This document shows, piece by piece, positions 4,206 through 59,867 of a DNA stretch of 64,000 bases (positions within the stretch are counted from its first letter, which is position 1; the number at the start of each line of letters is the position of its first letter). The position numbers were made by a program, and so were the translations under genes. This stretch comes from Alphaproteobacteria bacterium (GTDB taxonomy: Bacteria; Pseudomonadota; Alphaproteobacteria; RF32; CAG-239). Location: contig JAZSBR010000036.1 of the NCBI GenBank assembly GCA_045602545.1, positions 31,279 through 95,278 on the forward strand, read 5' to 3'. The notes below the pieces were generated by a model. That model saw nothing but the letters and a program-made list of their open reading frames with translations, had not been told where the DNA came from and did no database searches.

Positions 4206-5231
4206 CTATTTTTTAAATGTCAAAACCACGAAGTTATCGTTACCATCGTGAAGCCATTGAGCGGCTTCTGCCGGAGTCCAACGTTTTTTGGAAAAAGGAA
4301 GTTGTGAATAACAGTTTCCGTTATAATCGGCATAACCTGCAGAACAACTGATGTTACCGTCATCCGGAATTTCTGTGCAGCCGGTACCTGTATGATAATA
4401 ATAGTAATCATCGCTTTCGGAATGAAGACATTCCTTATGGTCACCGGCATCAAATATAACCTTATCACTATAAACGTTAGCCGCAGTTTCTATATATGCT
4501 TTTATTTTTTCATAACAGCTTTCGGAATTGTTTTTACATTTAAAAATCGTAAAACCTTCATCCCAATCATTTAGAGCATCATTACTCCAACCACTAAAAT
4601 CAAGAGAATTTGGAATAATTATTTCTAAATCACTGTTCGTTCTAAAAGCATTACTATCAATGGTTGTTAATGAGCTTGGAAGTTCTAAGTGAGTTAGAGC
4701 CGATGTCTCAAGGAAGGCATCATTAGCGATGGTCTCTATCATAGGCATATTAACATTGCTTAGAGAGCTTGCACCGGCAAATGTTCCCTCATTGATTATT
4801 TTTACATTTGGCATATCAATACTTGTCAAAGATGATGCTTCCCGAAATGCATATTCTCCGATGGTGGTTAGCGTGTTTGGAATGTCAATATCTGTTAGTA
4901 ATGTTTCTCCGCTAAAAGCATTTTCTCCGATATTTACGACTCCATCACCAATTACAACGCGCGTTACGCCTTGTCTTGCCCAAGGAGCAGAAGTTACCCA
5001 TCCGTTTTCGTATCCGTCGTCCGTTCCGTGAAAAGCATAGGTAACGTAGTAATCATTCATTGTTACATTTCCTGCACCGGTTTTAGCTGAAATCGTTAAA
5101 ATTCCGTCGTCAATTTTCCATAAACAAGTTTCATCTTCATTACAGTAACCTGCAGTATCTATTGCTCTGGCTTCACTTGATATTTCCAAAACAAAAATCA
5201 CTATACTTGCAATTAAAACAAACTTTCTCAT
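4206..5231 (-). CDS. secreted BspA-type leucine-rich-repeat protein with family C-terminal module (paralog 1)
   Basis: Signal peptide MRKFVLIASIVIFVLEISSEARA. LRR_5-like units (IGEYAFREASSLTSIDMP / INEGTFAGASSLSNVNMP…). C-terminus KKRWTPAEAAQWLHDGNDNFVVLTFKK is shared with 5 other ORFs in the window. Confidence 0.85.
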   Translation of the reverse strand: MRKFVLIASIVIFVLEISSEARAIDTAGYCNEDETCLWKIDDGILTISAKTGAGNVTMNDYYVTYAFHGTDDGYENGWVTSAPWARQGVTRVVIGDGVVNIGENAFSGETLLTDIDIPNTLTTIGEYAFREASSLTSIDMPNVKIINEGTFAGASSLSNVNMPMIETIANDAFLETSALTHLELPSSLTTIDSNAFRTNSDLEIIIPNSLDFSGWSNDALNDWDEGFTIFKCKNNSESCYEKIKAYIETAANVYSDKVIFDAGDHKECLHSESDDYYYYHTGTGCTEIPDDGNISCSAGYADYNGNCYSQLPFSKKRWTPAEAAQWLHDGNDNFVVLTFKK

Positions 5232-5498
5232 TTTATTTTCCTTCTTTAAAAATTAAAACTAATTTAGCATAAAAGAAAAATCGCCCCAAAAGGCGACTGG
5301 AAGTTGGAAACTATACTTATCAGATAGTGTGATTTATTCGCAAACCGAGCGGTTTCTTATTTCGTCACCTTCCAATCATACGAATATGACTGAAAATTAA
5401 ACTATCCTCACATAAGGATGGATAAGTATGAGGTTTCCACACCTCCGAGCCTTTTATGCTCATTTCCGATTTTAGCTGATTTTACTATTTAAAGTCAA
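5232..5498 (-). promoter_or_regulatory. class-1 structured leader, copy A, with its promoter
   Basis: Minus strand: TTGACT(5498-5493)-18 nt-TAAAAT(5474-5469), then an RNA starting near GAGCAUAAAAGGCUCGGAGGU and ending in UCGCC/GGCGA hairpin + UUUUUCUUUUAUGCU (plus 5266-5297). It aligns with copies at 23915-24164 and 30889-31125 with compensatory changes. Confidence 0.7.
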
Positions 5499-5500
5499 GC

Positions 5501-5530
5501 TAAAAAAGAACCGGCTCTAAAGAGTCGGTC
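5501..5530 (-). terminator. terminator downstream of the U32 peptidase gene
   Basis: Minus RNA GACCGACUC-UUUA-GAGCCGGUUC followed by UUUUUU, lying between the stop at 5553 and the class-1 promoter. Confidence 0.6.
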
Positions 5531-5552
5531 TTAATGAAATTATATAGTAAGA

Positions 5553-7829: not shown

Positions 7830-7989
7830 CAAAAAACCTTCAGTTATTGTTTGCGCCCTTTTTAACGCAATTACAAAAGCTTGTCAAGCACTGTTCGGTT
7901 ATTTTTTGCTGTGGCTATCTTTAATAAGTTCTCTTGCATTTTTTTGAGGCGTAAATTATTATGGCGTTATTGATGAAGGAGAAAATTTT

Positions 7990-9972: not shown

Positions 9973-11301
9973 TCACTTCTTAAAAGTAATCACCACGAAG
10001 TTATCGTTTCCGTCATGAAGCCACTCAGCCGCCTCTGCCGGTGTCCAACGTTTTTTGGCGAATGGGTATTCACTCCAGCATTGCTTATCCCACTCAACAA
10101 ATCCGGAAGCGCAAGGAACACTGCCATCAGTGTTTTTTCTTGAGCAGCCGGCACCACTCCAGCCGTAATTACCGGAGCATTGTGAAGGACTGGTTGCCTC
10201 AGAAATGCGGCTTGAATCTATGCAACCACTTGAGCAATTGCATGTCGCATTTGCCGGACATCTTGGATCATCAGCAGAAAAATATTTTGCCAGTTTTTCA
10301 TAACAGGTGTTTAAACCACCTTGGCAAACGATATTTACGCCCTCTGGAAGTTCCCTAAAGACCCGACTGTTCCACCCTTCTGTATTAATATTATCAGGAA
10401 TTATAATACTTTCTAAACCTGAGGCATCATGAAAGGCGCCCTCTCCGATACCTGTAACACCTTCCGGAATCGTGATGCTGGTTAAACCGGTGGCATTATA
10501 AAAGACATTATCTCCGATACCTGTAACACCTTCCGGAATCGTGATGCTGGTTAAACTGCTGGCATTCAAAAAGGCACTACTTCCGATACTGGTAAGCGAA
10601 TCCGGAAGCGTGATGCTGGTTAAACCGCTGGCACTATTAAAGGTATTAATTCCGATACTTGTAACACCTTCCGGAATCGTGATGCTGGTTAAACTGCTGG
10701 CACCATAAAAGGCCTGATCTCCGATTCTGGTAACCGTATTCGGAAGCGTGATGCTGGTTAAACCGCTGGCATTACTAAAGGCACTATTTCCTATTTTAGT
10801 AAAATTACTACTGGAATCAAATGATACGGAAGTTATATTTGGGTTTGCATAAAACGGATGCTTGGTGTCAGCAGTGTCGCCGGAATAATAACCATTAACA
10901 CCACCAACATTTTTCCATTCGTAAACATTCCTGCTCGCCACTTCACCACTACCATATAAAGTTACGGCACCGTCTGTTGTTTGAGTGTAATAACAACTTC
11001 CTCCACAGCTTTTGCACTCCATTGACTCGGCAATACACCCTGTTCCGCAGACTTTCTCTCCGCTTTTGCAACTATCCGCAAAGGCTGTGGATATGTTGAG
11101 GGAAAGGAGGAGGGCAAATGCGGTCATCTTGAGGGTCGAACGAAGTGAGTGCCCGTAAAGATCTCTTTTTGCAGAGTAACATTGCGTTTTAACTCCGTCA
11201 TTGACAACAGACTCTACACTTGCTCCGGAGATCTTGACACCCGCTTCGGGGTTCAAGATGACAGCGGATTTATTTTTTTCATTTTTCTTAATTTCAAACA
11301 T
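9973..11301 (-). CDS. secreted BspA-type LRR protein with family C-terminal module (paralog 2)
   Basis: Six near-identical 23-aa LRRs (LTSITIPEGVTGIGDNVFYNATG…). C-terminus KKRWTPAEAAEWLHDGNDNFVVITFKK. AGGAG SD 8 nt before the ATG at 11301. Hydrophobic signal-like segment MTAFALLLSLNISTAFA begins only at residue 59. Confidence 0.8.
   Translation of the reverse strand: MFEIKKNEKNKSAVILNPEAGVKISGASVESVVNDGVKTQCYSAKRDLYGHSLRSTLKMTAFALLLSLNISTAFADSCKSGEKVCGTGCIAESMECKSCGGSCYYTQTTDGAVTLYGSGEVASRNVYEWKNVGGVNGYYSGDTADTKHPFYANPNITSVSFDSSSNFTKIGNSAFSNASGLTSITLPNTVTRIGDQAFYGASSLTSITIPEGVTSIGINTFNSASGLTSITLPDSLTSIGSSAFLNASSLTSITIPEGVTGIGDNVFYNATGLTSITIPEGVTGIGEGAFHDASGLESIIIPDNINTEGWNSRVFRELPEGVNIVCQGGLNTCYEKLAKYFSADDPRCPANATCNCSSGCIDSSRISEATSPSQCSGNYGWSGAGCSRKNTDGSVPCASGFVEWDKQCWSEYPFAKKRWTPAEAAEWLHDGNDNFVVITFKK
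10380..10800. repeat. tandem 69-bp (23-codon) repeats encoding the LRR units
   Basis: The unit ctccgatacctgtaacaccttccggaatcgtgatgctggttaaac recurs at 10443 and 10512, with diverged copies out to about 10800. Period is 69 bp. Confidence 0.8.
11121..11264. mobile_element. 144-bp nested-palindrome (MITE/RPE-like) element lying in frame in the 5' end of paralog 2
   Basis: Terminal inverted repeats gtcatcttgag…/…ctcaagatgac. Each arm is itself a hairpin (aucuugaGCCCcgaagcGGGCgucaagau). The same element is at 51326-51469, and the arm architecture resembles the element at 40331-40453. Confidence 0.6.
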
Positions 11302-11612
11302 TTTAGTTCTCCTATTAAAAAAGGTTGTTTAAAAATTCAAATGCCCTCTGTTTTTACAGCGGGCGGGGAGTTGAACAATCATGTTGACAGTAATGACTCC
11401 TACATCCTTTAGCATTTAAAAATACTTGTACATACGACATAGGCTCCCCAACCAAAGTGGGGATTTTGGATACAAAAAAACAGCATCCGAGGGACACTGA
11501 TTTAATGTACCTCTGTCAACAAAGAGCCGTTCAAAGCCCCGAACCCGAAGGTTCTTAAAATGATTTTCATCATTCTGCATGGTATGCTAGCAGAAAAAAT
11601 AAAAAATGTAAA
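11302..11612 (-). promoter_or_regulatory. class-2 structured leader, copy E, with its promoter
   Basis: Minus strand TTTACA(11612-11607)-17 nt-TAGCAT(11589-11584). Conserved blocks GAAUGAUGAAAAUCAUU, GAACCUUCGGGUUCGGGGCU, AUCCCCACUUUGGUUGGGGAG, and AACUCCCCGCCCGCUGUAAAAACAGAGGGC + U-rich tail. Confidence 0.7.
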
Positions 11613-18026: not shown

Positions 18027-19009
18027 TAAAGAGAGCCTTCCTCGGAATTCGTTTTATCTCCGAACCACGGCCAACCGAATTTATACCAAGGCTTGTCAGA
18101 AGATGTTTCCGAAGAAGTTTCGGATATTTCTTCCGGTTCTTCAACAGTTTCTTCTTGTTCGGCTATATTTTCGCTTTTATCACCGAACCACGGCCAACCG
18201 AACTTATACCAAGGCTTATCAGAAGATGTTTTAGTTTCCTTATCTTCTTTAGAAATATTTGATTTTTTAGTTTTTTCTATTTTGTTCATAACATCTTCAG
18301 CCTTAGCCGTCCATTTGCTGTTCGGGTAATTCATCTTTAAGATTTTATAATAGCCTTTGGCATATTTATTCATCCCCAAAATTGCATAAATTTCAACCTC
18401 GCGATATAAAGCTTCTTCAATTTGCACGGTTTTTTGATATTGTTCCAACACAACATTAAAGCGGTTTAATGCCGAAAGGTAGTTTTTGTTATTCAAATAA
18501 TAACGCCCGATAATCATTTCCTGAGCGGCCTTGTAGTCTTCTGCCAAATTTATTTTTTGCAAAACATCTTTGGTGTATTTGCTATCGGGATAAAGAGTTA
18601 CCAAGCGCTCAAATGTTTCTTCAGCCATTCGCGTATTCAGTTGGTCTTTTTCCGCCGAAGAAATCTGGTCATAATAGCTCATTCCTTTCAAGTAATAAGC
18701 ATAATCCGCATCCTTATTTCCCGGATGATATTTCAAAAATCTGTCCGCCGCCATAATGGCATCATCATACGATTCGTTTTTATAATAAGCATAAGCCGCC
18801 ATCAGTTTGGCTTTGACGGCCCATTTTGAATAAGGATGCTCTGTTTCAAGCTGTTCAAATTGTTCGGCTGCTTTTTTATATTTTGTTTCTTCTAAGTTGT
18901 TGTATGCCTTATTATAAAGATTTTCTGCCGGCAGGTTAAGATTTTCATCCTTAGAGGCGCAAGCAGAAATCAAAAGTCCCAAAATAAGTATTGCAGATAT
19001 TTTTTTCAT
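18026..19009 (-). CDS. bamD: outer membrane protein assembly factor BamD (lipoprotein) with duplicated aromatic C-terminal motif
   Basis: Lipobox LLISAC. TPR-like YfiO body (…PYSKWAVKAKLMAAYAYYKNESYDDAI…). Tail contains SSDKPWYKFGWPWFGDK twice. Confidence 0.85.
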   Translation of the reverse strand: MKKISAILILGLLISACASKDENLNLPAENLYNKAYNNLEETKYKKAAEQFEQLETEHPYSKWAVKAKLMAAYAYYKNESYDDAIMAADRFLKYHPGNKDADYAYYLKGMSYYDQISSAEKDQLNTRMAEETFERLVTLYPDSKYTKDVLQKINLAEDYKAAQEMIIGRYYLNNKNYLSALNRFNVVLEQYQKTVQIEEALYREVEIYAILGMNKYAKGYYKILKMNYPNSKWTAKAEDVMNKIEKTKKSNISKEDKETKTSSDKPWYKFGWPWFGDKSENIAEQEETVEEPEEISETSSETSSDKPWYKFGWPWFGDKTNSEEGSL

Positions 19010-19863: not shown

Positions 19864-19879
19864 TGTTTTCTCCAAAAAA

Positions 19880-20283
19880 GGTGAATGGCAACTTATAAGC
19901 CGGGTTCTGTATGTCAGAGGTTTATAAAAAAACATAACACGATAGCTATTCATCTGCGTCGAATGTCGCCATCCGACTGGTGCGACCTACCTTTGGAGAG
20001 GAACGGAAACCTTCCCTTTATTCGGACAAGCCGAATCCCCGTTTTTGGTCTTACATCAGACAGGGTTTACCTCAAGCCATAAATATTGCTACTTATGCGG
20101 TGAGCTCTTACCTCGCCTTTTCAACCTTACCGATTTATGATAAAATCGGCGGTAATTTTCTGTGGCACTGTCCCGTGGATTACTCCAGCCAGACGTTATC
20201 TGGTGTCTTGTTTCCGCGAAGCCCGGACTTTCCTCATTATCGGCTTTTACTTGCCGTAACGCAGCCATCCGGTTACCATTCAC
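19880..20283 (-). ncRNA. rnpB: RNase P RNA, bacterial type A
   Basis: Minus strand contains the universal GAGGAAAGUCCGGGCU (plus 20221-20236) and ACAGAACCCGGCUUA (plus 19893-19907). P1 pairing is GAAUGGUAAC (5', plus 20272-20281) with GUUGCCAUUC (3', plus 19882-19891). Also …GGUAAGAGCUCACC… and …GGUAAACCC… modules. Confidence 0.92.
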
Positions 20284-43600: not shown

Positions 43601-46600
43601 CCGCTGCTCAAACAACAGCCAACCAAGCTAAAACAGCTGCTGAAAATGCTCAAAGCACAGCTGATACTGCTGTCGCAAATGCCGCAACTGCACAAGACAC
43701 AGCTAATGCTGCATTATTGAATGCAAGTGGTGCTGCTTCTGCTGCTGCCGCTGCTCAAACAACAGCCAACCAAGCTAAAACAGCTGCTGAGGTTGCTGAT
43801 GGTAAAGCCGTTGCAGCTAAAGCATCTGCTGATGCAGCCCAAGTTACAGCTGATACAGCAATAGCAAATGCAAGTGGTGCTGCTTCTGCTGCTGCCGCTG
43901 CTCAAACAACAGCTAATCAGGCAAAAGACAGAGCAGATCATGCTTATGCATTGGCTGAAAAAGCAGAAGGTGATGCCGCACAGGCTCAAACAGCTGCTAA
44001 TCACGCACAAGACACTGCTAATGAAGCAAAAGAGGCTGTCGGTGATGTTTCTAAATTTGCTCAAAGCACAACAGGCAATATCTCTAACTCTGTTCCTGGT
44101 TCAGGTACAAATGCAACCAACGCTTCTGCTGCTATCGCCAATATAGACGCTACAATCGGTCAAATCCATGGCTTGGCTTCTACTATTACCGATGCTGCAG
44201 GTGCTAAAAACTTAGAGCAAGGCTCAACAGTAAGCGGTCACTTGCTTGCTTTAGCAGCTTCTATCGGTAACAGAACTGATTATACCGGTGCAAATTATCT
44301 TGTAAATAACCAAGATATTGCTACATCACTTACTGTTTTGGATACCGCTATCGGCAATGCTGAAGATAAGAATGATATTCAAGATAATTCTTTGTCAGAC
44401 ATCTATGGCAAGTTGAACGGTGGTAATTATAATAAGACTACCGGTGCTGTTACAGATGCAACTGCTTTATCAACAAACTTCACAGCTACTAATGTTACAG
44501 CTGCTGCAAATGAGTTGTTGACAGATATCACAGTAACCGCTGATGGTAACTACATTACAGCCGGTGCTGATGTTAAAGGCAATTTGAGTGCTTTGGACGG
44601 TCAAGTTAAGGACAATGCCGATAATATCGCTTCAACAATGGCTTTGGTCGGTACAACTTCCGCACCGAAGACGGGTCATGGCATCTTAGCTGGCAAGACC
44701 ATTACTGGTACTGCCGGTACAGATAACCTCAATATGGTTGATGCCATTGATTTTGTCGCTGCCAATGCGGCCGGCTTGAATGTGGATAATGTTTACTCCG
44801 GTAAAAATACATTCGGTACAACATCAGGTAGCCAAGTTATCATTGATAACGGCGGCAACTTGACGGTTAACCATGATTTGACAATCGGTAAAGCAAACGC
44901 TATCAGCAGCACAGCAACCGGCAAATTGGATATGGGTGGCAACACATTGCTCAATGTCCAAGGCTTGACCTTGACAGACGGCTCAGGCCACACAGCAACG
45001 TTGGCAGCTACCGAAAACGGTATCAACACCGGAAACGCTGACCTTGACGTTGGTACAGGTGCTTTAAAATCTCAAACTTTGTATGTCGGTACAACGGATC
45101 AATTCTCAGTTGACGGATCAGGTAATGTCAGTACATCAGGTACATTGGATGTGACGGGTAAAGCAACTGTCGGCTCACTTGATATCGGTACAACAGGCAA
45201 GGGCTTTGATGCAACCGGCAACTTGACTGCAGGTACAATCAATGCAACTGGTATCGACACCACAACTGCCAATACAGTTAAACTCGGTGGTACAGGCTTT
45301 ACAACGGCTGTTACCGGCGATATGACGGTCAGCGGTACGACGACTTTGACTGATTTGACCGTGACGGGTGATACCACTTTGGATGACTTGACGGTCAACG
45401 GTAATACGAGTTTGAAAAATACTACCGTGGACGGTACTTTGGAAGTAACCGGTGGTGCTATATTCGGTGATAAGACAGATCAATTTGTTGATATCACGGA
45501 TGGTGCTATTACCGTTCATGATGGTACAGGTTCAACCAATATCACAGCAAGTATTGCCAACAATGGCAATATCACAACCAAAGGTGCTTTAGAGGTGGCA
45601 GGTCTTGCTTCACTCAACGGTGGCATCAATGTCAATGACAAGTTTGAAGTTAGCGGTACAGATGGTACGGTTACATTAACCAACGGTACAAACACTGCTT
45701 CTATTGCTATGACTGACGTTAAGGTTGCGACGGATGATCCGCTCAATCCTGAATCTGTTACTAATGTTATGAAAGTAACGGGAACAGGTTTGTTTACGGG
45801 TGATGTTGTTTCTGAGTCTGGATTTACTATTGCTCAGAAGAATGGTGTCGATCAGTATGAAGTTAAATTCTCTGTTGATGACGATGGCAATATCGATACA
45901 TTAGGTACATTGTCTGTTGCCGATGACAAATTCACGGTTGACGGTTCAGGCAATATGTACGCCGCAGGTGATGCTGATATCGACGGCGACTTGTCAGTTG
46001 GTGATAAGTTCAGCGTAACTTCTGCTGGTGGTTCGTTCAGCGCAGCTGGTGGTGAATTTAAAGTCGATGGTGACGGAAATACCAAAATAAAAGGTGCAAT
46101 GGCCGCCGGTAAAACAGGTACGGAATTTAAAGTCGGCTTAAGCGGTAACATCTCTGCCGCGTCAGGCAACTTTACTGTTGATAAAGACGGTAACGTAACA
46201 GCTCAGGGTGACTTGGGTGTGTATGGTACATCTTGGTTGAAAAACACCAATGTTGATGGTGCTTTGGCTGTGACAGGTGATACAACTGTTGGTCAGAACT
46301 TCGCCGTTGCCGGTAATTCATACTTGCACAACACTTCTGTTGACGGCGCTTTAGCTGTTACAGGTACATCTTGGTTGAAAAACACCAATGTTGATGGTGC
46401 TTTAGCTGTGTCAGGTGATTCTACAGTTGGTCAGAACTTCGCTGTTGCCGGTACTTCTTACTTGCATAACACTGTTGTTAATGGTGATATGGCTGTTAGC
46501 GGAACAACAAAGACAACTGCTTTGACATTTAATGGTGAAAGCTATGTTGCCGCTATGGATCAAGGCGATGCCGCTATTACTAACGGTACTGTTGATGATC

Positions 46601-47679
46601 AGGCTAAACGTACAATGGCTACAAATGCAACTGTTGCCAAGACGGTTGGCAATTTGAATTCATTGACCACAGCCGCTAACGGCGTTACCAGTGCAAACGA
46701 TGTTGCTGATGCAATCAACAGCTTGGGAACAAACGTTGAAACCGCTACCGGCGGAACTTTCGCAGCTAACGGTGTATGGACAGGCAGTATAGACGGTAAA
46801 GTTGACGATGGTACAGGTTCGTTGGTTGATAGAGCCGTTGCTTATGGCACAATCACTGATAATAATATCTTAGATGTTGTTGATAGCTTGTATGCTAATG
46901 TTGGCAATACTGCTGTTACCGGTACAAACGATAATATCTTGAGCACAAATACGGTTAACCAAAACTTAGATCGTATTGACTCTAAGATTGGCGATATCAG
47001 AACTTTGAATGGTAATGCCTTGAATAAAGGTACGACAACTCAGCCGACAACCGTTGTTGCTGCTTTGCAGAACATTAACGACTCTATCGGTAAAGTTCAT
47101 GGCTTGTATGATGGTTCAACTGTTAACAGCACAACTGTTGCTTCAACAGTTAACGGAAACTCTAACTTGATGGCTGTTGCCGGCGGTGTTTCTACTGCTG
47201 AAGACCATTTGGTAAGCTTAGATAACGCTATCGGTGACAGAACATTGGTAAGCAAAAATACGGCTATCAATGATGCAATGAGCGGCGAATCTGTTGCTTC
47301 CGGTTTGAAAGCTGCCGGTGATGCAATTGGTGATATGAACTTCACTGGTTCTCACTATGTTGCAGGCAACAACGACTTGTCCGGTGCTGTAAGAAGCTTG
47401 GATAGCAACCTCTATCGTGTTGAATCTGATTTGCGTGATTTAAGACGCGACTTCAGACGCGGTATGGCTTCTATGTCTGCTATGTCTGCTTTGGTTCCTA
47501 ACCCGAGAGCTCACGGAAATACTTCGCTTGCTATCGGTACAGGTGCTTATGACGGTCATACAGCTGCTGCTATCGGTGGTTTCCACTATCTCACAGACAA
47601 CATTATGCTTAATGCCGGTGTGGCTTGGGGTAACTCCAGCGACGCTGCATATCGCATGGGTGTAACGTTCTCTTGGTAA
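40657..47679 (+). CDS. trimeric autotransporter adhesin (YadA-type C-terminal anchor), 2340 aa
   Basis: Long signal region MKYSRTALGLLNAQYRSVLRKCFLINMGLFALGAIATPAKA, Ala/Thr/Gln-rich coiled-coil stalk repeats, and C-terminal …MASMSAMSALVPNPRAHGNTSLAIGTGAYDGHTAAAIGGFHYLTDNIMLNAGVAWGNSSDAAYRMGVTFSW (YadA anchor pattern ending in an aromatic residue). Confidence 0.9.
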   Translation: MKYSRTALGLLNAQYRSVLRKCFLINMGLFALGAIATPAKAEYTTVDLSTVYPSGTATETLKYKDATNQSTKYVWDAENIVISPTAGDSRGIDLGNISYNGSEPYIMDIGGENTESITITPTNGYAITVFKESELNLEADEITVNGIVHASDNTMADLAKHATVNIKGGEVVLNADTTYKTAVEAMSQGIVNIEGDTTITGDKAILSRGNAQINVNTNNNDNKTVINGDIVFDYDQDTSGSPIDAYVNVNLNGEDSSWTGNTYVDWNTKPEESKLNVTKSTITLSDGATWNATKIENNDVATDGSRYTSINNLNVDGGNVKFNEAGAQVQIDNLKVGADGVNVTKNADSDRIEVKTTADLRNGVSDSYADIINVNDGASLYVDADASGNLDAVGGNKEYIKLEGVTLLSAMNSGSTINTAGYDLSSGNAAKSLGVYYADTSTDGSGNIVLGTKQSYTDLIGIEQNGNYIKAYNAADAENTSVSANLSALDNQVFENETNIAQNTADIATNTDAIAQNTAAIAGKQDTLSEAQLAAANSGIDSTKVSTYDGYAAQISAKADVATTYTKDEVNAYVADNAVQTVTTGTANGTISVDGSNVAVKGLGSAAYTESSAYATAAQGTLAETAVQSVVKGDNNGEIKVDGTTIKVYDDAALQAAVEAAQTTATNAQSTATAAQTAASTANSKATTAQSTATAAQTAAAAAQTAANTAQSTAEAAQTAASTADGKAVAAQSAATAAQTTANTAVTNAASAQSAAEAAQTAADTANSTANANKTAITTLNGSASQTGSVANSIATALTSYSTTDQMNSAISTAISNAASNYDAAGSAATAEQNAKDYADGAIADEVTARNTAIGAAKTEILAGTGYAGSGLETAVAGTANAQITASLNGTDAGTIGKAISDAQAAAEATAATAQDTADAALLNAGGAASAAAAAQTTANQAKTAAENAQTSADAAKASADAAQVTADTAIANAGGAASAAAAAQTTANQAKTAAENAQSTADTAVANAATAQDTANAALLNASGAASAAAAAQTTANQAKTAAEVADGKAVAAKASADAAQVTADTAIANASGAASAAAAAQTTANQAKDRADHAYALAEKAEGDAAQAQTAANHAQDTANEAKEAVGDVSKFAQSTTGNISNSVPGSGTNATNASAAIANIDATIGQIHGLASTITDAAGAKNLEQGSTVSGHLLALAASIGNRTDYTGANYLVNNQDIATSLTVLDTAIGNAEDKNDIQDNSLSDIYGKLNGGNYNKTTGAVTDATALSTNFTATNVTAAANELLTDITVTADGNYITAGADVKGNLSALDGQVKDNADNIASTMALVGTTSAPKTGHGILAGKTITGTAGTDNLNMVDAIDFVAANAAGLNVDNVYSGKNTFGTTSGSQVIIDNGGNLTVNHDLTIGKANAISSTATGKLDMGGNTLLNVQGLTLTDGSGHTATLAATENGINTGNADLDVGTGALKSQTLYVGTTDQFSVDGSGNVSTSGTLDVTGKATVGSLDIGTTGKGFDATGNLTAGTINATGIDTTTANTVKLGGTGFTTAVTGDMTVSGTTTLTDLTVTGDTTLDDLTVNGNTSLKNTTVDGTLEVTGGAIFGDKTDQFVDITDGAITVHDGTGSTNITASIANNGNITTKGALEVAGLASLNGGINVNDKFEVSGTDGTVTLTNGTNTASIAMTDVKVATDDPLNPESVTNVMKVTGTGLFTGDVVSESGFTIAQKNGVDQYEVKFSVDDDGNIDTLGTLSVADDKFTVDGSGNMYAAGDADIDGDLSVGDKFSVTSAGGSFSAAGGEFKVDGDGNTKIKGAMAAGKTGTEFKVGLSGNISAASGNFTVDKDGNVTAQGDLGVYGTSWLKNTNVDGALAVTGDTTVGQNFAVAGNSYLHNTSVDGALAVTGTSWLKNTNVDGALAVSGDSTVGQNFAVAGTSYLHNTVVNGDMAVSGTTKTTALTFNGESYVAAMDQGDAAITNGTVDDQAKRTMATNATVAKTVGNLNSLTTAANGVTSANDVADAINSLGTNVETATGGTFAANGVWTGSIDGKVDDGTGSLVDRAVAYGTITDNNILDVVDSLYANVGNTAVTGTNDNILSTNTVNQNLDRIDSKIGDIRTLNGNALNKGTTTQPTTVVAALQNINDSIGKVHGLYDGSTVNSTTVASTVNGNSNLMAVAGGVSTAEDHLVSLDNAIGDRTLVSKNTAINDAMSGESVASGLKAAGDAIGDMNFTGSHYVAGNNDLSGAVRSLDSNLYRVESDLRDLRRDFRRGMASMSAMSALVPNPRAHGNTSLAIGTGAYDGHTAAAIGGFHYLTDNIMLNAGVAWGNSSDAAYRMGVTFSW
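43429..43930. repeat. four tandem 147-bp (49-codon) repeats inside the adhesin stalk
   Basis: gca(g/a)gtggtgctgcttctgctgctgccgctgctcaaacaacagc… begins at 43429, 43576, 43723 and 43870 (exact 147-bp period). Encodes …GGAASAAAAAQTTANQAKTAAENAQ…. Confidence 0.85.
46225..46500. repeat. two tandem 138-bp (46-codon) repeats in the adhesin
   Basis: ggtacatcttggttgaaaaacaccaatgttgatggtgcttt… at 46225 and 46363. Encodes GTSWLKNTNVDGALAV.GD.TVGQNFAVAG.SYLHNT. Confidence 0.8.
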
Positions 47680-50390: not shown

Positions 50391-51503
50391 TTATTTTTTG
50401 AAGGTAATCACTACAAAATTATCGTTGCCGTCATGAAGCCATTTACTTGCTTCCGCCGGTGTCCAGCGCTTCTTTGAAAAAGGTAATTGAGCATAGCAAT
50501 TTCCGTTATAATCGGCATAACCGCTGGCACAAGTTATATTCCCGCTTTCCGGTAATTCGGCACATTCTGTTCCGGTATGGTAATAACTGACATTTTCGCT
50601 ATCACGAGGTGTGTTAAAACATTCTTTGTGATCATCGGCATCAAAGATAATATTGTTACCGCTGATATAAGAAGCTCTTGCGGCAAATTCTGCTATTTTT
50701 TCTTTGCAAATTTCCTGATTTCCTTTGCATTTGAATGTAACAGTTCCATTATCAGAATTATCATTTAAGGCATCATCGTCCCAACCGCTCATATCAATAG
50801 AATCAGGAATAATAATTTCAATATCACCATACGTACGAAGCGCATCACCATCAGTCCAAACAAGAGAATCAGGAATCTCTAAGGTTCGTAAATTATAAGC
50901 ATCACAAAGTGCAAGATTTCCAAGTTTTTCTATTTTTGGCATATTCACGCTTGTTAAAGCATTAGCAGCTTCAAAAGCATAGGCTCCTAATTCAGTAACG
51001 TTCGGCAATTCCACTGTGGTTAAACTCTGCAAATTATCAAAACACTCATCTTCAATAGTGGTTATATTATTGGTGTTTAGTGTTGTTAAATTAGGGACAT
51101 TATCAAAAGTTTCACGAGCGAGAGCCGTAATATTATCACCAAACTCAATTTCGGTTATTTTTTCTTGTTGGTCTCCCCAAGCAATTTCATTATCGTCATC
51201 ATCGTATACCGAATCGCAGCCGGAAAACTCTCCACTTCCATCGATAATCAGCTTTGTTCCTTCCCAAGTGCAGGTTGTTTCTGCAAAGGCTGTGGACAAG
51301 TTGAGGGAAAGAAGGAAGGCAAGGACTGTCATCTTGAGGGTCGAACGAAGTGAGGGCCCGTAAAGATCTCTTTTTGCAGAGTAACATTGCGTTTTGGCTC
51401 CGTCATTAACAACAGGCTCTACACTTGCTCCGGAGATCTTGACGCCCGCTTCGGGGCTCAAGATGACAGCGGATTCATTTTTTTCATTATTTATATCAAA
51501 CAT
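50391..51503 (-). CDS. secreted BspA-type LRR protein with family C-terminal module (paralog 5)
   Basis: C-terminus KKRWTPAEASKWLHDGNDNFVVITFKK. The N-terminal 57 aa are near-identical to paralog 2 and contain the 144-bp palindromic element. Signal-like MTVLAFLLSLNLSTAFA follows. AGGAG SD before the ATG at 51503. Confidence 0.8.
   Translation of the reverse strand: MFDINNEKNESAVILSPEAGVKISGASVEPVVNDGAKTQCYSAKRDLYGPSLRSTLKMTVLAFLLSLNLSTAFAETTCTWEGTKLIIDGSGEFSGCDSVYDDDDNEIAWGDQQEKITEIEFGDNITALARETFDNVPNLTTLNTNNITTIEDECFDNLQSLTTVELPNVTELGAYAFEAANALTSVNMPKIEKLGNLALCDAYNLRTLEIPDSLVWTDGDALRTYGDIEIIIPDSIDMSGWDDDALNDNSDNGTVTFKCKGNQEICKEKIAEFAARASYISGNNIIFDADDHKECFNTPRDSENVSYYHTGTECAELPESGNITCASGYADYNGNCYAQLPFSKKRWTPAEASKWLHDGNDNFVVITFKK
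51326..51469. mobile_element. second copy of the 144-bp nested-palindrome element, in frame in paralog 5
   Basis: ctgtcatcttgagggtcgaacgaagtgagggcccgtaaagatctc … gagatcttgacgcccgcttcggggctcaagatgacag. Collinear with 11121-11264 apart from a few substitutions. Confidence 0.6.
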
Positions 51504-51828
51504 TTCAGTTCTCCTATTAAAAAAGGTTGTTTTTAAAATTTAAATGCCCTCTGTTTTTACAGTGGGCGGGGAGTTCAGAAATCATACAAGAAGAAATGAC
51601 TGTTAAGATCTTTAGCTATAAGCCTGAACATACACCTTAACCTCCCCATCCAATGCGGGGATTTAAAACCAAAAAAAGCGCCTTCAACCTATACCAAAAA
51701 AGGATAAGCAGAAAAGACACCATTTGGGTATCTTCTTGTAAGAGCCTCTGACAGCCCCGAACCCGAAGGTTCTGAAATGATTTTCATCATTCTGTTCATA
51801 AACTAGCAGAAAAAATAAAAAATGTAAA
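51504..51828 (-). promoter_or_regulatory. class-2 structured leader, copy F, with its promoter
   Basis: Minus strand TTTACA(51828-23)-17 nt-TAGTTT(51805-00). Same conserved blocks as copies D and E. Terminator-like GCCCACUGUAAAAACAGAGGGC (plus 51546-51567) + U-rich tail. Confidence 0.65.
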
Positions 51829-54828: not shown

Positions 54829-55932
<1,104 letters not shown>

Positions 55933-55937: not shown

Positions 55938-57059
55938 TTGTGGTTTAAGAATAAGCGCAATAATCATCGTAATAAAGAACAAAAGCCGATTGATAAAAAA
56001 CAGGAAAACGGCTTGAATGATGGTTATTATGCGGCTATTGACTTAGGCACAAATTCTTGTCGTCTGGTTGTTGCACAACCGACCCCTTCATCATTTAAAC
56101 TGGTGGAAACATTTTCTAAAGTGACGCGTTTAGGTGAGGGAATAATTAATGGAAACACGCTTTCAAAACCGGCAATAAGACGTACAATCTCCGCCTTAAA
56201 AGTTTGCAGTGCCATAATGGAAGAATATCAACCGATGATACGTTCTCGTTTTGTGGCAACAGCTGCTTGCAGGCGCGCGCTTAATTGCAACGAATTTGAA
56301 CAGGCTGTTAAAAAAGAAACAAAGCTCAATATGGAAGTTATCTCTTCCAAAGAAGAAGCCAGACTTGCGGTTGTGGGTTGCATGCCGTTATTGAATCGCA
56401 CCATAAAACGCGCACTGGTTTTTGATATCGGCGGAGGTTCAACGGAAATATCGCTTGCCCGTATAACAGAAAGCGGAAAGACTTTTATTGAGGGATTCGT
56501 ATCGCTTCCTTATGGAGTGGTTACGATTTCGGAGGCTTTCCCGGCAAGGGAAATGACTAAGCTTGCTTATGATACAATTGTTGAACGCACTCATAAAATA
56601 TTGCAGGAATTTGAAGAAAAAAATCATATCAGCGAAGCTATCAAAAATCAGGAAATTCAAGTTATCGGAACATCAGGAACAGTGACCGTTTTGGGTGCCG
56701 TGCATTTGGGGCTCCCGCGCTATAATCGTGCGGCGGTTGATGGAGTTTCCGTTTCCGGTGATGATATGGAAAAAGTTATAAAGCGCATTAAAAATATGGG
56801 GTATGAAGGGCGTTGCAAACATTCTTGCATCGGTAAAACAAAAGCTGATTTAACTATTTCGGGATGCGCAATTGTTGAAGCTTTGTGTACTTTTTGGCCG
56901 ATTTCGGAAATTACTATCGCCGATAGAGGTATCAGAGAAGGAATTTTGCTTGATATGATGCATCACCAAAAAAATAACTATTTCCACCCTTATGGGAAAA
57001 GACGTCGTTTCAAAAGGAGAAATTTTAAGAATGAACAACAAAAATCTGGCGGCGATTGA
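55938..57059 (+). CDS. Ppx/GppA-family phosphatase (copy 1)
   Basis: TTG start 8 nt after GGAGAA. YAAIDLGTNSCRLVVAQP…, …VFDIGGGSTEISL…. Basic tail GKRRRFKRRNFKNEQQKSGGD. Confidence 0.8.
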   Translation: MWFKNKRNNHRNKEQKPIDKKQENGLNDGYYAAIDLGTNSCRLVVAQPTPSSFKLVETFSKVTRLGEGIINGNTLSKPAIRRTISALKVCSAIMEEYQPMIRSRFVATAACRRALNCNEFEQAVKKETKLNMEVISSKEEARLAVVGCMPLLNRTIKRALVFDIGGGSTEISLARITESGKTFIEGFVSLPYGVVTISEAFPAREMTKLAYDTIVERTHKILQEFEEKNHISEAIKNQEIQVIGTSGTVTVLGAVHLGLPRYNRAAVDGVSVSGDDMEKVIKRIKNMGYEGRCKHSCIGKTKADLTISGCAIVEALCTFWPISEITIADRGIREGILLDMMHHQKNNYFHPYGKRRRFKRRNFKNEQQKSGGD

Positions 57060-58029
57060 TTTAGGCACAAATTCTTGCCGACTTAAAATTACCGATGAAA
57101 ACGGAAATCTTATTTATCGTGAAGCCGTGACAACCAAGCTTGGCGAAGGTATGATGAAAAATATGCGCTTTACCGATGAAGCATTGGAGCGCGGGCTTAA
57201 TTGTCTTAATCATTATGCTGAGTTGATGAAAGATTATAATGTCGGGAACTATCGTGCGATTGCTACGGCTTCGTGTCGTATGGCGAAAAACGGGCAACAA
57301 TTTGTGAAAATGGTTGAAGAATTGAGCGGCATAAAATTAGATATTGTTTCCGAGCAGGAAGAAGCGTTGCTTAACTTGAGAGGAGCGTCATTAAATGCCA
57401 GAAAAGATGCTGAAACTATTTTTGTTTATGATTTGGGCGGAGGTTCAACAGAACTGACACTTGCTTTGAATAGCAGTGAGCCGAAAGCTTTATACACGAT
57501 TTCAATTCCCTGGGGTGCGCGAAATGCTTCGGAATATTTTGATTTGTGTGAATATGACGAGCAAAAGGCTTTGCCTTTGAAAAAAGAAATTGGAAAATAT
57601 ACGCGCGATTTTATGATTAGCTCGGAATTTTTACAATATCTGCCGAAGTGCTGTGCGATCGCAACCTCAAGCACACCGTTACGATTGATGAATATGATTA
57701 AGAATACCGAAAGTTATGACAAAGATTTTGCTGACGGATTAAGCGCGCCAACCGAAAAATTTGATGAACAAATTGAAAAAATTTATCAATCAAATTTAGT
57801 GGAATTAATGAAAAATCCGCATATCGGAGAAAACAGAGCGCCGATTATTGTTGCAGCGAGTGTTATCTTCCAGACGATTTATAAAACCCTGCAAATAAAA
57901 GAATTAACCTCATCACTTAAAGGGGCGCAAGAAGCAATTATCTCTGATTTGGTAAAGGAAAATAAAGCAAATGGTAAAATTAACGAAATCAGCCAAAGAA
58001 GTGCGCGGTCGCAAAACCTTGACCGTTAA
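57031..58029 (+). CDS. Ppx/GppA-family phosphatase (copy 2)
   Basis: MNNKNLAAIDLGTNSCRLKITDENGN…, …VYDLGGGSTELTL…. ATG at 57031 after AGGAGA. Overlaps copy 1 by 29 nt. Confidence 0.8.
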   Translation: MNNKNLAAIDLGTNSCRLKITDENGNLIYREAVTTKLGEGMMKNMRFTDEALERGLNCLNHYAELMKDYNVGNYRAIATASCRMAKNGQQFVKMVEELSGIKLDIVSEQEEALLNLRGASLNARKDAETIFVYDLGGGSTELTLALNSSEPKALYTISIPWGARNASEYFDLCEYDEQKALPLKKEIGKYTRDFMISSEFLQYLPKCCAIATSSTPLRLMNMIKNTESYDKDFADGLSAPTEKFDEQIEKIYQSNLVELMKNPHIGENRAPIIVAASVIFQTIYKTLQIKELTSSLKGAQEAIISDLVKENKANGKINEISQRSARSQNLDR

Positions 58030-58672
58030 AGTAAAAACGGCAAAATATAATAAGCCTTCATCAAACCGTTGGTTGCAACGCCAACTTAATGATCCGTATG
58101 TTGCCGAATCAAAACGTTTGGGATATCGCTCGCGTGCTGCATTCAAGCTTATTCAATTAGATGAAAAATATCACTTTTTGGGCAAAGGAAAAACAATTGT
58201 TGACTTGGGTTGCGCTCCCGGCGGATGGACGCAGGTTGCCGCTCAAAAAAACAAAGGAGCAGGGCAAATTGTGGGGCTTGATTTGTTGCCGACCGAAGAA
58301 ATTAAAGGCGCAATTTTGTTGCAACAGGATTTTACCGAACAAAGTACGCCGGAAAAAATTAAAGCACTTCTTAACGGACCGGCTGATGTGGTGATGAGTG
58401 ATATGGCGGCAAATACCACCGGACACCAGCAAACAGACCATTTGCGCACCATTCATCTGGTTGAACTGGCATACGAATTTGCCAAAGAAATTTTGGTTGA
58501 AGGCGGAATTTTCATAGCTAAAGTTTTTCAAGGCGGTACGGAAGGCGAGCTTCTAAATGATATGAAAAAGAATTTTGCCAAAGTTACGCATTATAAGCCT
58601 GATGCCAGCCGGCAGGATTCGGTTGAAATATATGTTGTGGCGCAAGGTTTTAAGGGCGCAAATAAAGATTAG
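57971..58672 (+). CDS. rlmE: 23S rRNA (uridine2552-2'-O)-methyltransferase RlmE/FtsJ
   Basis: …WLQRQLNDPYVAESKRLGYRSRAAFKLIQLDEKYHFL…VDLGCAPGGWTQVA…VMSDMAANTTG…. Confidence 0.9.
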   Translation: MVKLTKSAKEVRGRKTLTVKVKTAKYNKPSSNRWLQRQLNDPYVAESKRLGYRSRAAFKLIQLDEKYHFLGKGKTIVDLGCAPGGWTQVAAQKNKGAGQIVGLDLLPTEEIKGAILLQQDFTEQSTPEKIKALLNGPADVVMSDMAANTTGHQQTDHLRTIHLVELAYEFAKEILVEGGIFIAKVFQGGTEGELLNDMKKNFAKVTHYKPDASRQDSVEIYVVAQGFKGANKD

Positions 58673-58709
58673 CCGAATAATAAATAAGGTTTTAAGTTTT
58701 CTTTTTTGC

Positions 58710-59015
58710 TTTACATTTTTAATTTTTTCTGCTAGCATAAAAGAAGAATGATGAAAATCATTTCAGAACCTTCGGGTTCGGGGCTGTAGCAGGCTCTATA
58801 TTGTTGGTGATACGTTAAAAGGGTATCACTTGGTGATACTTTTTTTTGTATCTAAAATCCCCACTTTGGATGGGGAGATTATGACGTATGTACAGGCTTT
58901 TTTTAAAGCTAAAGGTTATAATAGTCATTGCCAACAATATGATTTGCTAACTCCCCGCCCGCTGTAAAACAGAGGGCTTTTGAATTTTTAAACTGTTTTA
59001 AGAAAGGACAATGAT
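58710..59015 (+). promoter_or_regulatory. class-2 structured leader, copy D, with its promoter
   Basis: TTTACA(58710-15)-17 nt-TAGCAT(58733-38). Conserved blocks as in copies E and F. Terminator-like GCCCGCUGUAAAACAGAGGGC (58957-77) + UUUUGAAUUUUU. Confidence 0.7.
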
Positions 59016-59867
59016 ATGAAAAAACTAATTTTATTAACGAGTGTAGCTATATTGTGCTTATTAAATGTATCCGAATCATCGGCAGATGATGAAATAAACT
59101 GTCTAACCGGACAACAATCATGCGGAACAAATTGTTGCTGGTCGGTGGAAAATAAAAAGCTGACTATAACCGGCGGTGCCGACGGTTCCATCGGTACTAT
59201 GGATGATTACGATAATGCTTCTGGAGGAGAAGGACACAATACTCAATGGACAGGTCTAGATATAAGAGCAATTTATGTGTCAGGTTTGGAAAATATTGGG
59301 ATTCAAGCATTCCGAGATTTAAAAAAAGTCACAAATATAACCATAGGCGATTCGGTCGAGCGTGTTAGTAATGCTGCGTTTGATAATGATTATATGTTGC
59401 AATATGTTGATTTTGGTGATGCTGTAATAAGCATTGGAGAATATGTTCTCCAAGATACTCCGAGACTCATACAAATCATTGTCCCTGATACCTTGAATGA
59501 TATAGCTCTGCAATCTTTCGGGAATGGAGATCTTGTCGGAAGAAATATTCAAATAATCTGTCGTGGAGATAAAGTGTCTTGTTCGAATATTTATGAAAAA
59601 CTGTCTGAATATTCATCTAAAAAAGGACAAACATATGACGCAACAAGTCAATTGTTTTACGCAAATTATGAGCAGTGTGCCTCAACAAGCTATTTTTGGG
59701 ATGGAGCAAAATGCGTGCGTGAGCCGGATTTAAGCAAACGCAAGTGTTGCTCATCATGCAAAGATATGGGAGGATGGTGCAATCGCATTCAATATACCCC
59801 TGCAGAAGCCGCACCGTTGTTGCATAACGACAACACAAATGAAGTGACGATTACTTTCAAGAAGTGA
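59016..59867 (+). CDS. secreted BspA-type LRR protein with family C-terminal module (paralog 6)
   Basis: Signal peptide MKKLILLTSVAILCLLNVSESSA, LRR_5-like units, C-terminus NRIQYTPAEAAPLLHNDNTNEVTITFKK. Confidence 0.85.
   Translation: MKKLILLTSVAILCLLNVSESSADDEINCLTGQQSCGTNCCWSVENKKLTITGGADGSIGTMDDYDNASGGEGHNTQWTGLDIRAIYVSGLENIGIQAFRDLKKVTNITIGDSVERVSNAAFDNDYMLQYVDFGDAVISIGEYVLQDTPRLIQIIVPDTLNDIALQSFGNGDLVGRNIQIICRGDKVSCSNIYEKLSEYSSKKGQTYDATSQLFYANYEQCASTSYFWDGAKCVREPDLSKRKCCSSCKDMGGWCNRIQYTPAEAAPLLHNDNTNEVTITFKK

Follow-up and report, generated by a model that had tools for sequence, protein, structure and literature searches.

Known sorting tags of the size of the module described here contain a transmembrane helix, which this module lacks. 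Variable surface families with conserved ends are exemplified by the Mycoplasma Vsp and Vlp lipoproteins. In Tannerella forsythia, the BspA-type LRR surface protein BspA bears a dedicated C-terminal sorting domain, the T9SS CTD (PMC5445135). In the TcpF and CofJ type IVb pilus systems, a soluble protein exported by Sec attaches to a pilus subunit by a short, flexible peptide at its terminus and is thereby taken across the outer membrane (PMC9565799, PMC6048534, PMC10120004).

The DNA analysed here (the window) is a 64-kb stretch from an uncultured alphaproteobacterium of 40% GC; by GroEL, its nearest named relatives are 'Alphaproteobacteria bacterium' MAGs. This host has a diderm envelope with LPS, as LpxC, BamD and OMPs are encoded in the window, together with a CcrM-type methylase, RodZ, PtsP and, at 40657-47679, a YadA-type adhesin carrying a YadA_anchor domain. 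A first-pass annotation had pointed to six ORFs with a common tail on five LRR passengers and one cysteine-repeat passenger. The translations of all six agree with those it quoted, and Pfam places LRR_5 in five genes and Furin-like_2 in g3. The genes and their tail modules are as follows.

4206-5231, minus strand: g1, secreted LRR_5 protein of 341 aa with a canonical signal peptide (equals P0131)
4209-4346, minus strand: g1 tail module, W-type, 46 aa, CSAGYADYNGNC...WTPAEAAQWLHDGNDNFVVLTFKK
9973-11301, minus strand: g2, LRR_5 protein of 442 aa from the RBS-adjacent ATG, signal-peptide core from codon 59
9976-10113, minus strand: g2 tail module, W-type, 46 aa
22553-23914, minus strand: g3, cysteine-repeat (Furin-like_2) protein of 453 aa with a canonical signal peptide
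22556-22672, minus strand: g3 tail module, Y-type, 39 aa
31156-32265, plus strand: g4, LRR_5 protein of 369 aa (ATG at 31156) or 294 aa (TTG at 31381), signal-peptide core at codons 84-103
32140-32262, plus strand: g4 tail module, Y-type, 41 aa, with a TFRK end
50391-51503, minus strand: g5, LRR_5 protein of 370 aa from the RBS-adjacent ATG, signal-peptide core from codon 58
50394-50531, minus strand: g5 tail module, W-type, 46 aa
59016-59867, plus strand: g6, LRR_5 protein of 283 aa with a canonical signal peptide
59757-59864, plus strand: g6 tail module, Y-type, 36 aa

The six tails share the consensus C-x(6-10)-C-...-[YW]TPAEAA-x-[VLW]L-x-D-x-N-x-N-x-V-x-[IL]TF[KR]K-COOH, with 14 invariant columns. 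A six-frame scan of the whole window for TPAEA followed by [ILV]TF[KR]K and a stop codon returned exactly 6 matches, all of them in these genes. With the first Cys of the disulfide loop taken as its start, the module measures 36-46 residues, longer than the ~25 residues first proposed. The ~15 residues that separate the motif from the basic end are polar (D77, D86, N96 and N99 per cent), only V-T-I-T-F being hydrophobic, which bears out the earlier statement that the tail has no transmembrane helix. In the family alignment, near-invariant positions are (per cent) T98, P98, A96, E99, A100, N96, N99, V93, I94, T95, F99, [KR]99 and K93.

A 42-position profile of the tail was used in an exhaustive search of 1.84 billion protein representatives, matches being counted as clusters at 50% identity. 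The profile gave E = 1e-15 to 7e-23, values that exclude a chance resemblance, and the family comprises 326 cluster representatives at E<=1e-3 and 253 at E<=1e-10. A tail-like N-terminal stretch of an L026 protein (CVRYTAEEAKEA...SFTAVF) was not significant (E = 8.4, 4.6 bits) and was discarded. As had been claimed for the six ORFs, the tail lies at the extreme C-terminus in the relatives: the distance from [YW]TPAEA to the C-terminus is 23-25 residues in 164 of the 166 family sequences examined. Its portability also holds across the family. LRR_5 is the passenger in 70/142 members, 72/142 have no LRR_5 match in Pfam, and the other passengers are RHS, MORN_2, Furin-like_2 or sequences with no Pfam domain; at least six Pfam families occur among the passengers besides LRR_5 and LRR_8. 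Family members contain 5.3% Cys, and an N-terminal hydrophobic core is present in 98 of the 125 members of at least 200 aa. With significant profile scores, many sequences and varied architectures, the tail constitutes a new protein domain family, which looks host-associated and adhesin-like.

The family is not confined to very recent duplicates, given its 326 clusters at 50% identity and the saturation of synonymous sites. Among the six window tails, mean pS is 0.80 (saturated) versus a mean pN of 0.20, and third codon positions vary freely. These values indicate that the tail is old and kept by selection on the protein and not on the DNA; recent duplication or gene conversion of the tails is ruled out by the same comparison. 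The passengers are hypervariable while the tail is conserved. A GroEL identical to that of the window is present in other assemblies, in contrast to the six tail proteins, each of which stands alone or almost alone when 15 billion proteins are clustered at 90% identity. In L006, an assembly with the identical GroEL, a different pre-tail sequence occupies the position of g5, and no tail gene was found within +/-10 kb of GroEL in relatives with 94-98% GroEL identity.

Sec-type signal peptides had been assigned to all six proteins. Judged by eye and by a simple hydrophobicity rule, those of g1, g3 and g6 are canonical and N-terminal, whereas g2, g4 and g5 have their hydrophobic core 58-80 codons past the ATG next to the ribosome-binding site. 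The g4 ATG at 31156 is placed directly after a leader and a ribosome-binding site, and the TTG at 31381 has GGAGGA 7 nt upstream. The starts chosen in the first-pass annotation were those of the long ORF for g2 and g5 and the internal TTG (31381) for g4. The starts listed for g2, g4 and g5 are provisional. The 5' ends of g2 and g5 have 212 nt in common at 92% identity.

That the tail is not a named domain agrees with our searches: no Pfam, NCBIfam or PDB entry covers it. Pfam-A and NCBIfam gave no match to the tails, in the full proteins or alone, even at E<=10, and a profile search of PDB sequences gave none. Foldseek with the tail model returned nothing significant, its only two matches, both non-significant, being EGF-like MSP1-19; with a full-length model only the LRR part was matched. 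The motif strings were absent from the literature by full-text search, and a JGI metagenome scan with tail peptide patterns gave no match. The same patterns against GTDB representative genomes yielded one spurious Acidobacteriota match, a weak negative since the window's own genome was also missed.

Structure prediction of the tail alone, a check that had been proposed with the original observation, gave a hairpin, a short helix and an extended coil end. In the AlphaFold model the disulfide hairpin is followed by the short helix (PAEAA) and by an extended, unpaired C-terminal strand with two basic end residues, at moderate confidence (tail pLDDT 58-82). The last ~15 residues are predicted by AlphaFold2 as extended and free of any intramolecular strand partner in full-length and tail-only models alike. 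In the LRR members, 60-100 residues of helices and Cys hairpins separate the LRR from the tail. Taken from a monomer prediction, an unpaired terminal strand is a weak indication of docking.

Every one of the six genes is located behind a shared promoter type and one of two structured RNA leaders of ~230-280 nt, listed below.

5232-5468, minus strand: type A leader of g1, with a promoter-like site at 5498-5469 and a terminator-like hairpin at 5298-5279
11302-11583, minus strand: type B leader of g2
23915-24136, minus strand: type A leader of g3
30918-31155, plus strand: type A leader of g4, with a terminator-like hairpin at 31089-31107
51504-51799, minus strand: type B leader of g5
58739-59015, plus strand: type B leader of g6, with a promoter TTTACA-17-TG-TAGCAT at 58710-58738 and an internal terminator-like hairpin at 58817-58845

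Both leaders are structured cis-regulatory RNAs with strong covariation. In type A, 96.3% of cells are paired versus 31-47% in slid controls, and both sides are changed in 14/37 pairs, a count matched by 0/500 shuffles. At 18 further loci, cognate duplexes are longer than non-cognate ones (8.3 versus 4.5 and 6.1 versus 3.8). The type A structure comprises a pseudoknot, a terminator and mutually exclusive pairings, and its helix 108-117/185-194 (A9 numbering) overlaps the 5' half of the terminator stem. With a terminator and a competing helix, type A has the organisation of an expression platform and would be expected to switch. A closing helix of type A, GAGCAUAAAAG/CUUUUAUGCUC, drawn from the three window copies, was dropped when wider sampling showed a local 5' hairpin. 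Type B combines long-range helices with terminator-like hairpins; 88.4% of its cells are paired versus 39-49% in slid controls and both sides are changed in 22/61 pairs versus 4-8 when slid, these statistics being drawn from the same five sequences from which the structure was derived. Neither leader matched any of the 4227 Rfam 15 families; for type A there was no match at gathering thresholds, and the best E was 0.04 with permissive filters. The type A leader also precedes type IV pilin genes (bundlin/PilS-type) in relatives, which suggests that tail genes and pilin genes are co-regulated.

Tail genes are dispersed singly among housekeeping genes, in the window as in relatives. A conserved neighbour gene was sought around the tail genes of relatives and only unrelated housekeeping genes were found; no partner, processing site or enzyme, or secretion system was linked to tail genes in the window or in the neighbourhoods of relatives.

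From the architecture of these proteins, and by analogy with the BspA-type LRR surface proteins of other phyla, which bear a C-terminal domain devoted to sorting, we propose for the tail a lineage-specific role as docking or sorting tag of Sec-exported surface proteins, a reading to which we give a probability of about 40%. On this view the disulfide-rich, adhesin-like proteins of an uncultured clade of alphaproteobacteria would carry the tail as an autonomous address module at their C-terminus, made up of a small disulfide-closed beta-hairpin, the short PAEAA helix and an extended amphipathic strand, V-T-I-T-F, with two basic end residues. Once the protein has been exported by Sec and its disulfides have formed in the periplasm, it would engage a single conserved partner through its exposed terminal strand and basic carboxy-terminus, probably by beta-strand addition. 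Candidates for the partner are a protein of the outer membrane, a component of the envelope and a pilus subunit. This docking would pass the passenger across the outer membrane or keep it at the surface, where binding would be carried out by the fast-diversifying passenger, mostly a BspA-type LRR. The tail genes would form a co-regulated set, with the same promoter type and one of two leaders with terminators. A wider version of this proposal, which we regard as unlikely, posits for gut-type Alphaproteobacteria an undescribed route of display or secretion at the outer membrane, for which the tail would serve as recognition tag; this route might be coupled to the bundlin-type type IV pilus, whose genes have the RNA leader in common with the tail genes. 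Tail and riboswitch-like leaders, both of them new, would together mark out a regulon of hypervariable surface proteins whose expression some signal switches.

The high conservation of the tail could equally mean a role in folding or oligomerisation. The tail would then be the terminal unit of a lineage-specific Cys-rich (EGF/furin-like) stalk, which caps, folds or oligomerises and takes no part in sorting or docking, and it would be conserved as a folding nucleus or multimerisation element. This fits with the Cys-rich C-x-x-G-Y hairpins that always precede the tail, with the repeated matches of the N-terminal half of the profile inside g3 and L007, with the EGF-like character of the sole, non-significant, fold-search matches and with the failure to find a partner. 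However, the TPAEAA...VTITFKK half is never repeated internally and occurs at the C-terminus only, the tail is far more conserved than the stalk repeats, and the last 15 residues are packed against nothing in the models; we therefore hold a structural role to be rather doubtful.

The exposed strand could instead be the functional end of the protein, its terminal Lys or Arg binding either a glycan or some molecule of the host or matrix with a specificity for basic residues at the C-terminus. K or R is indeed the last residue in 156/166 family sequences, the strand is predicted to be exposed and the family has a host-associated, adhesin-like appearance. Yet the diverse LRR passengers would be redundant if the tail were the binding element, and a motif under host pressure should vary, whereas the tail is the most invariant part of the protein, which makes such a role improbable. 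It is far less credible still that the peptide is incidental and that the 5' leader and 3' tail are kept alike as DNA for shuffling passenger cassettes between loci, in a form of antigenic variation. Passengers that are hypervariable between strains with identical GroEL, variable middles between conserved ends and the 212 nt common to the 5' ends of g2 and g5 all speak for recombination. But the tail copies are only about 74% identical as DNA, their synonymous differences being saturated and their amino acids strongly conserved, the opposite of what gene-conversion homogenisation would leave, and no exact DNA match in the tails is long enough for efficient homologous recombination; the contrast between pS and pN largely refutes this explanation.

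Should the tail prove to be a tag for sorting or docking, diderm bacteria would have a new means of directing proteins to their surface: a tag of ~40 residues, devoid of a transmembrane helix, borne by hundreds of adhesin-like, fast-evolving proteins in an uncultured clade that appears host-associated. Such a tag would provide a handle to list the surface proteome of this clade from sequence alone, to reach the partner machinery by co-occurrence and to design reporter fusions. The leaders are new structured RNAs with clear covariation ahead of pilins and surface proteins, a gene class for which, to our knowledge, regulatory RNAs have rarely been described.

Several described C-terminal elements were set aside. 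The tail is not the C-terminus of an outer-membrane beta-barrel or autotransporter, as the proteins lack a barrel domain and have K-K or R-K, not an aromatic residue, at their end. Nor is it an LRR C-terminal capping motif, since g3 has no LRR, half of the family (72/142) has no LRR_5 match and the tail stands apart from the LRR. A type I secretion signal is discounted by the N-terminal signal peptides, the Cys-rich composition and the lack of RTX matches.

Compared with riboswitch and attenuator leaders, both window leaders have the same conserved multi-helix structures with compensatory changes; however, the genes controlled here are surface proteins and pilins and not metabolic genes. They are good candidates for a new riboswitch or antitermination system. 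Like the Mycoplasma Vsp/Vlp families, the tail genes have many paralogues, a conserved 5' untranslated region, signal peptide and end region, a hypervariable repeat-containing middle and strain-level turnover. Unlike in these families, the tail proteins of the window are no lipoproteins, they belong to a diderm alphaproteobacterium, and it is the protein sequence of the tail, not its DNA, that is conserved; no phase-variation element was identified with the window tail genes. The TcpF/CofJ signal differs in being N-terminal, unrelated in sequence and encoded in a pilus operon, whereas the window tag is C-terminal and its genes are dispersed outside pilus operons, the link to pilin genes being the common type A leader in relatives.

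With the LPXTG/sortase, PEP-CTERM/exosortase and GlyGly-CTERM/rhombosortase signals, the tail has in common its extreme C-terminal position, a short invariant motif (here TPAEAA), a basic end and many passengers in one genome. For these signals to work, a transmembrane helix of ~20 residues has to link the motif to the basic end, whereas the tail is polar and acidic there (x-D-D-N-x-N-x) before its 5-residue amphipathic strand; no NCBIfam sorting-signal model matched the tails, and no sortase, exosortase or rhombosortase gene was found in the 64-kb window. The T9SS CTD is a beta-sandwich at least about twice the size of the tail, restricted to Bacteroidota and recognised by Pfam and NCBIfam models. 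Its profile (Por_Secre_tail) did not match the tails at E<=10, and the window, from a host outside the Bacteroidota, contains no T9SS component. What the tail shares with the T9SS CTD is its organisation: a conserved C-terminal module borne by a large paralogous set of Sec-exported surface proteins with unrelated passengers, including BspA-type LRRs.

A six-frame scan of the whole window for TPAEA followed by [ILV]TF[KR]K and a stop codon returned exactly six occurrences, all at the ends of the six ORFs (g1 to g6) that the first-pass annotation had singled out. The ORFs lie where that annotation had placed them, and their translations match its quotations:

4206-5231, minus strand, g1
9973-11301, minus strand, g2
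22553-23914, minus strand, g3
31156 or 31381 to 32265, plus strand, g4
50391-51503, minus strand, g5
59016-59867, plus strand, g6

The six tails have 14 invariant columns in common and measure 36-46 residues when the first Cys of the disulfide loop ahead of them is taken as residue 1. Those of g1, g2 and g5 (W-type) carry a 6-7-residue insert (PF[SA]KKR) ahead of WTPAEA, which is missing from those of g3, g4 and g6 (Y-type). Pfam assigns LRR_5 to five of the passengers, i.e., the variable parts ahead of the tail, and Furin-like_2 to that of g3, as had been proposed. Tandem DNA repeats are found within the passengers of g2 (10375-10802, minus strand; five 69-nt units, one LRR per unit) and g3 (23350-23535, minus strand; two 93-nt units of CxxC/GYY repeats), and these agree with repeat-number variation.

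A 42-position profile of the tail was used for an exhaustive HMMER search of 1.84 billion cluster representatives, which yielded 326 proteins at E<=1e-3, of which 253 also passed E<=1e-10. The profile match reached the C-terminus or stopped 1-3 residues short of it in all 150 matches listed, and 164 of 166 sequences have [YW]TPAEA 23-25 residues from their end, as expected from the initial claim that the module is strictly C-terminal. The consensus of these 166 sequences, [YW]-T-P-A-E-A-A-x-[VLW]-L-x-D-D-N-x-N-x-V-T-I-T-F-[KR]-K, is 93-100% conserved at most named positions; K or R is the last residue in 156 of them, and a minority variant ends in ...MTFKVNR. The portable character of the module also held beyond the window: LRR_5 was detected in 70 of 142 family members, the others bearing RHS, MORN_2, Furin-like_2, Ephrin_rec_like or no Pfam domain (several of the latter being fragments). 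An N-terminal hydrophobic core is present in 98 of the 125 members of at least 200 aa, the cysteine content of the family is 5.3%, and its members in public collections are unnamed or annotated 'hypothetical protein'. In two assemblies (L039:1-9450 and L040:1-9450), a W-type tail gene is broken into two ORFs, one for the LRR part and one for the tail, and adjoins a block of large unannotated genes that ends with a 775-aa Hydrolase_2 protein; this block is possibly a structural module of a phage or a gene-transfer agent.

No Pfam-A or NCBIfam model covers the tail in the full-length g1-g6 proteins, and the isolated 58-residue protein ends gave no match to either library even at E<=10. A profile built from 56 tails matched nothing among PDB sequences, and the motif strings did not occur in the full text of any of some 8 million papers and preprints. 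The module, which the first reading had not recognised as a named domain, is new to the domain and structure libraries searched. The AlphaFold2 model of g6 (105-sequence alignment) contains a confident LRR solenoid (mean pLDDT 87), whose PDB neighbours are BspA-type LRR proteins. In its tail region (pLDDT 58-81), a beta-hairpin corresponding to the disulfide loop is followed by a short helix across PAEAAPL, and the last ~15 residues have neither regular structure nor a partner. A model of the tail alone (56 sequences, pLDDT 78) agrees with this arrangement; a comparison with PDB structures retrieved no neighbour for it, just two non-significant matches, both to EGF-like MSP1-19.

The six tail DNAs are ~74% identical and differ at third codon positions. 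Nei-Gojobori counts over the 19 best-aligned codons of the six copies gave a mean pS of 0.80, which is saturated, versus a pN of 0.20. The tail copies are therefore old and conserved at the peptide level; recent duplication or gene conversion is ruled out by these values. Together with the 326-protein family, the saturation also sets aside the concern that the tails might be very recent duplicates only. As a module, the tail is autonomous, confined to the C-terminus and strongly selected. Unlike the tail, the passengers turn over rapidly. When 15 billion proteins are clustered at 90% identity, each of the six window proteins stands alone, except that the cluster of g5 has two 60-aa fragments as sole other members; a GroEL identical to that of the window is present in several other assemblies. 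Next to one such 100% identical GroEL, a tail gene (L006:1-156, minus strand) occupies the g5 position downstream of groEL (window 50391-50540); its tail is the same as that of g5 and its pre-tail sequence is different. This comparison indicates passenger replacement at the strain level.

All six genes have one promoter type, TTTACA or TTGACT, a spacing of 17-18 nt and (TG)TAnnAT, embedded in a conserved TTTTTCTGCTAGCATA context, which suggests that they form one regulon. Each is preceded by a long conserved leader of one of two types, A (~190-230 nt) or B (~240-300 nt). Both types recur 5' of tail genes in relatives (L001, L007), and neither is matched by any Rfam 15 family:

5469-5498, minus strand, g1 promoter
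58710-58738, plus strand, g6 promoter (equivalent sites lie upstream of each of g2-g5)
5232-5468, minus strand, type A leader of g1
23915-24136, minus strand, type A leader of g3
30918-31155, plus strand, type A leader of g4
11302-11583, minus strand, type B leader of g2
51504-51799, minus strand, type B leader of g5
58739-59015, plus strand, type B leader of g6
L007:2462-2718, L001:7767-7991, L009:13629-13860, L010:12909-13137 and L016-L037, type A leaders in relatives
L001:6619-6899 and L002:4757-4996, type B leaders in relatives

The structural alignment of type A (8 loci) comprises a hairpin, a three-helix core and a 5-bp pseudoknot, in which the hairpin loop pairs with a GUUUCC-like segment downstream. 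Pairing was found in 96.3% of cells versus 31-47% in slid controls, and 14 of 37 pairs change on both sides, which was matched by none of 500 shuffles; in the pseudoknot, both sides changed in 4 of 5 pairs. A pattern scan recovered 22 further loci from metagenomes, and in 18 of them cognate duplexes were longer than non-cognate ones, both for the pseudoknot (6.1 versus 3.8 nt) and for a further long-range helix (8.3 versus 4.5 nt). The 3' end of type A is a terminator-like hairpin, the 5' half of which also belongs to the covarying helix 108-117/185-194, and an upstream CCUUCUGG segment competes for the same central CUGGAAGG. These pairing alternatives correspond to an attenuator or riboswitch logic, in which switching itself is predicted. 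Most of the genes 3' of the extra loci encode bundlin/PilS-type type IV pilins; the rest code for signal-peptide proteins, an OMP-like protein or LRR-type N-termini. Type A therefore serves surface-structure genes of the clade in general. For type B, in a comparison of 5 sequences only, 88.4% of cells were paired versus 39-49% when slid, and both sides changed in 22 of 61 pairs; it has long-range helices and terminator-like hairpins (e.g., 58817-58845). The two leaders, a novelty outside the original finding, are better supported than the docking or sorting role of the tail.

Three of the genes bear an additional in-frame stretch, from the ATG with a ribosome-binding site to the signal-peptide core:

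11128-11301, minus strand, g2, 58 codons
51333-51503, minus strand, g5, 58 codons
31156-31380, plus strand, g4, 75 codons

Such stretches are also in frame in several relatives (P0023, P0059, P0074, P0106, P0108 and P0123); in others, the protein begins directly with MTIPALA... At the DNA level, those of g2 and g5 share 92% identity across 212 nt. Folding gives a long stable hairpin for both kinds (z = -3.8 and -3.3), and none of 200 shuffled sequences reached this stability. The 3' arm of the g2 hairpin contains the internal AUG; no Shine-Dalgarno sequence precedes the internal ATGs of g2 and g5, and GGAGGA is located 7 nt ahead of the internal TTG of g4. The stretches could be extended signal peptides that are translated, palindromic insertions that keep the frame, or a third RNA element.

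The window (GC 40%) encodes LpxC, BamD, an OMP, RodZ, PtsP, HisS, PrfA, GroEL, a CcrM-type methylase, RF3 and RNase P RNA, and the closest named GroELs (94-96% identity) belong to 'MAG: Alphaproteobacteria bacterium', which identifies the host as an uncultured diderm alphaproteobacterium. Judged by their sample labels, related contigs seem to come from animal or human gut studies and from a bioreactor. Both here and in relatives, tail genes are scattered one by one among housekeeping operons, and no secretion system or candidate partner was linked to them in the window or the relatives' loci. In the loci examined, relatives with 94-98% GroEL identity had no tail gene around GroEL; a scan of GTDB representative genomes also found none, but it relied on narrow patterns, missed the window's own genome and therefore carries little weight. 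The window further encodes a 2340-aa YadA-type trimeric autotransporter adhesin (40657-47679, plus strand; YadA_anchor at residues 2281-2340), with internal tandem repeats of 147 nt (43373-44073) and 138 nt (46225-46500) and with neither leader nor tail. The class A RNase P RNA (19880-20280, minus strand; 262 bits) overlaps the 5' end of the LpxC ORF (19012-19953), the listed start of which is therefore probably too far upstream. Two overlapping Ppx/GppA-family ORFs (55938-57059 and 56992-58029, plus strand) adjoin the CcrM-type N6_N4 methylase with a RAMA domain (54847-55932), and the 3' part of the BamD (YfiO) gene (18052-18231, minus strand) has a 57-nt direct repeat of 95% identity with 123-nt spacing.

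The tail bearers are Sec-exported, cysteine-rich proteins of a diderm host, with diverse, fast-evolving, adhesin-type passengers. Because of the position of the tail and the architecture of these proteins, and because LRR_5 passengers in other phyla bear a dedicated C-terminal sorting domain, such as the T9SS CTD of Tannerella BspA (PMC5445135), we tentatively propose, with a probability of about 0.4, that the tail docks onto a single conserved partner in the envelope. Docking would proceed by beta-strand addition through the exposed, amphipathic strand V-T-I-T-F and its basic carboxy-terminus, and would serve to pass the protein across the outer membrane or to retain it at the surface. It is rather unlikely that the tail is a structural end-piece of the Cys-rich stalk, and a ligand-binding end is improbable. 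A role at the DNA level, as a recombination handle, is very improbable and largely refuted by the pS of 0.80 versus the pN of 0.20. The tail as a docking or sorting tag is plausible but unproven.

The tail fails the defining features of every known family compared. It is not a T9SS CTD (wrong size, no profile match, wrong phylum), a tripartite sorting signal (no transmembrane helix) or an OMP or autotransporter end (no barrel, no terminal aromatic residue); an LRR cap is rejected by its presence on proteins lacking LRRs, and a T1SS signal by the Sec signal peptide. By function, it would most resemble a sorting tag. In TcpF and CofJ, the signal for secretion through the type IVb pilus is a flexible peptide at one terminus, which hooks onto a minor pilin (PMC9565799, PMC6048534, PMC10120004). 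Although this signal is N-terminal, whereas the tail is C-terminal, and the sequences are unrelated, it provides, among the systems compared, a concrete mechanistic precedent for such a tag.
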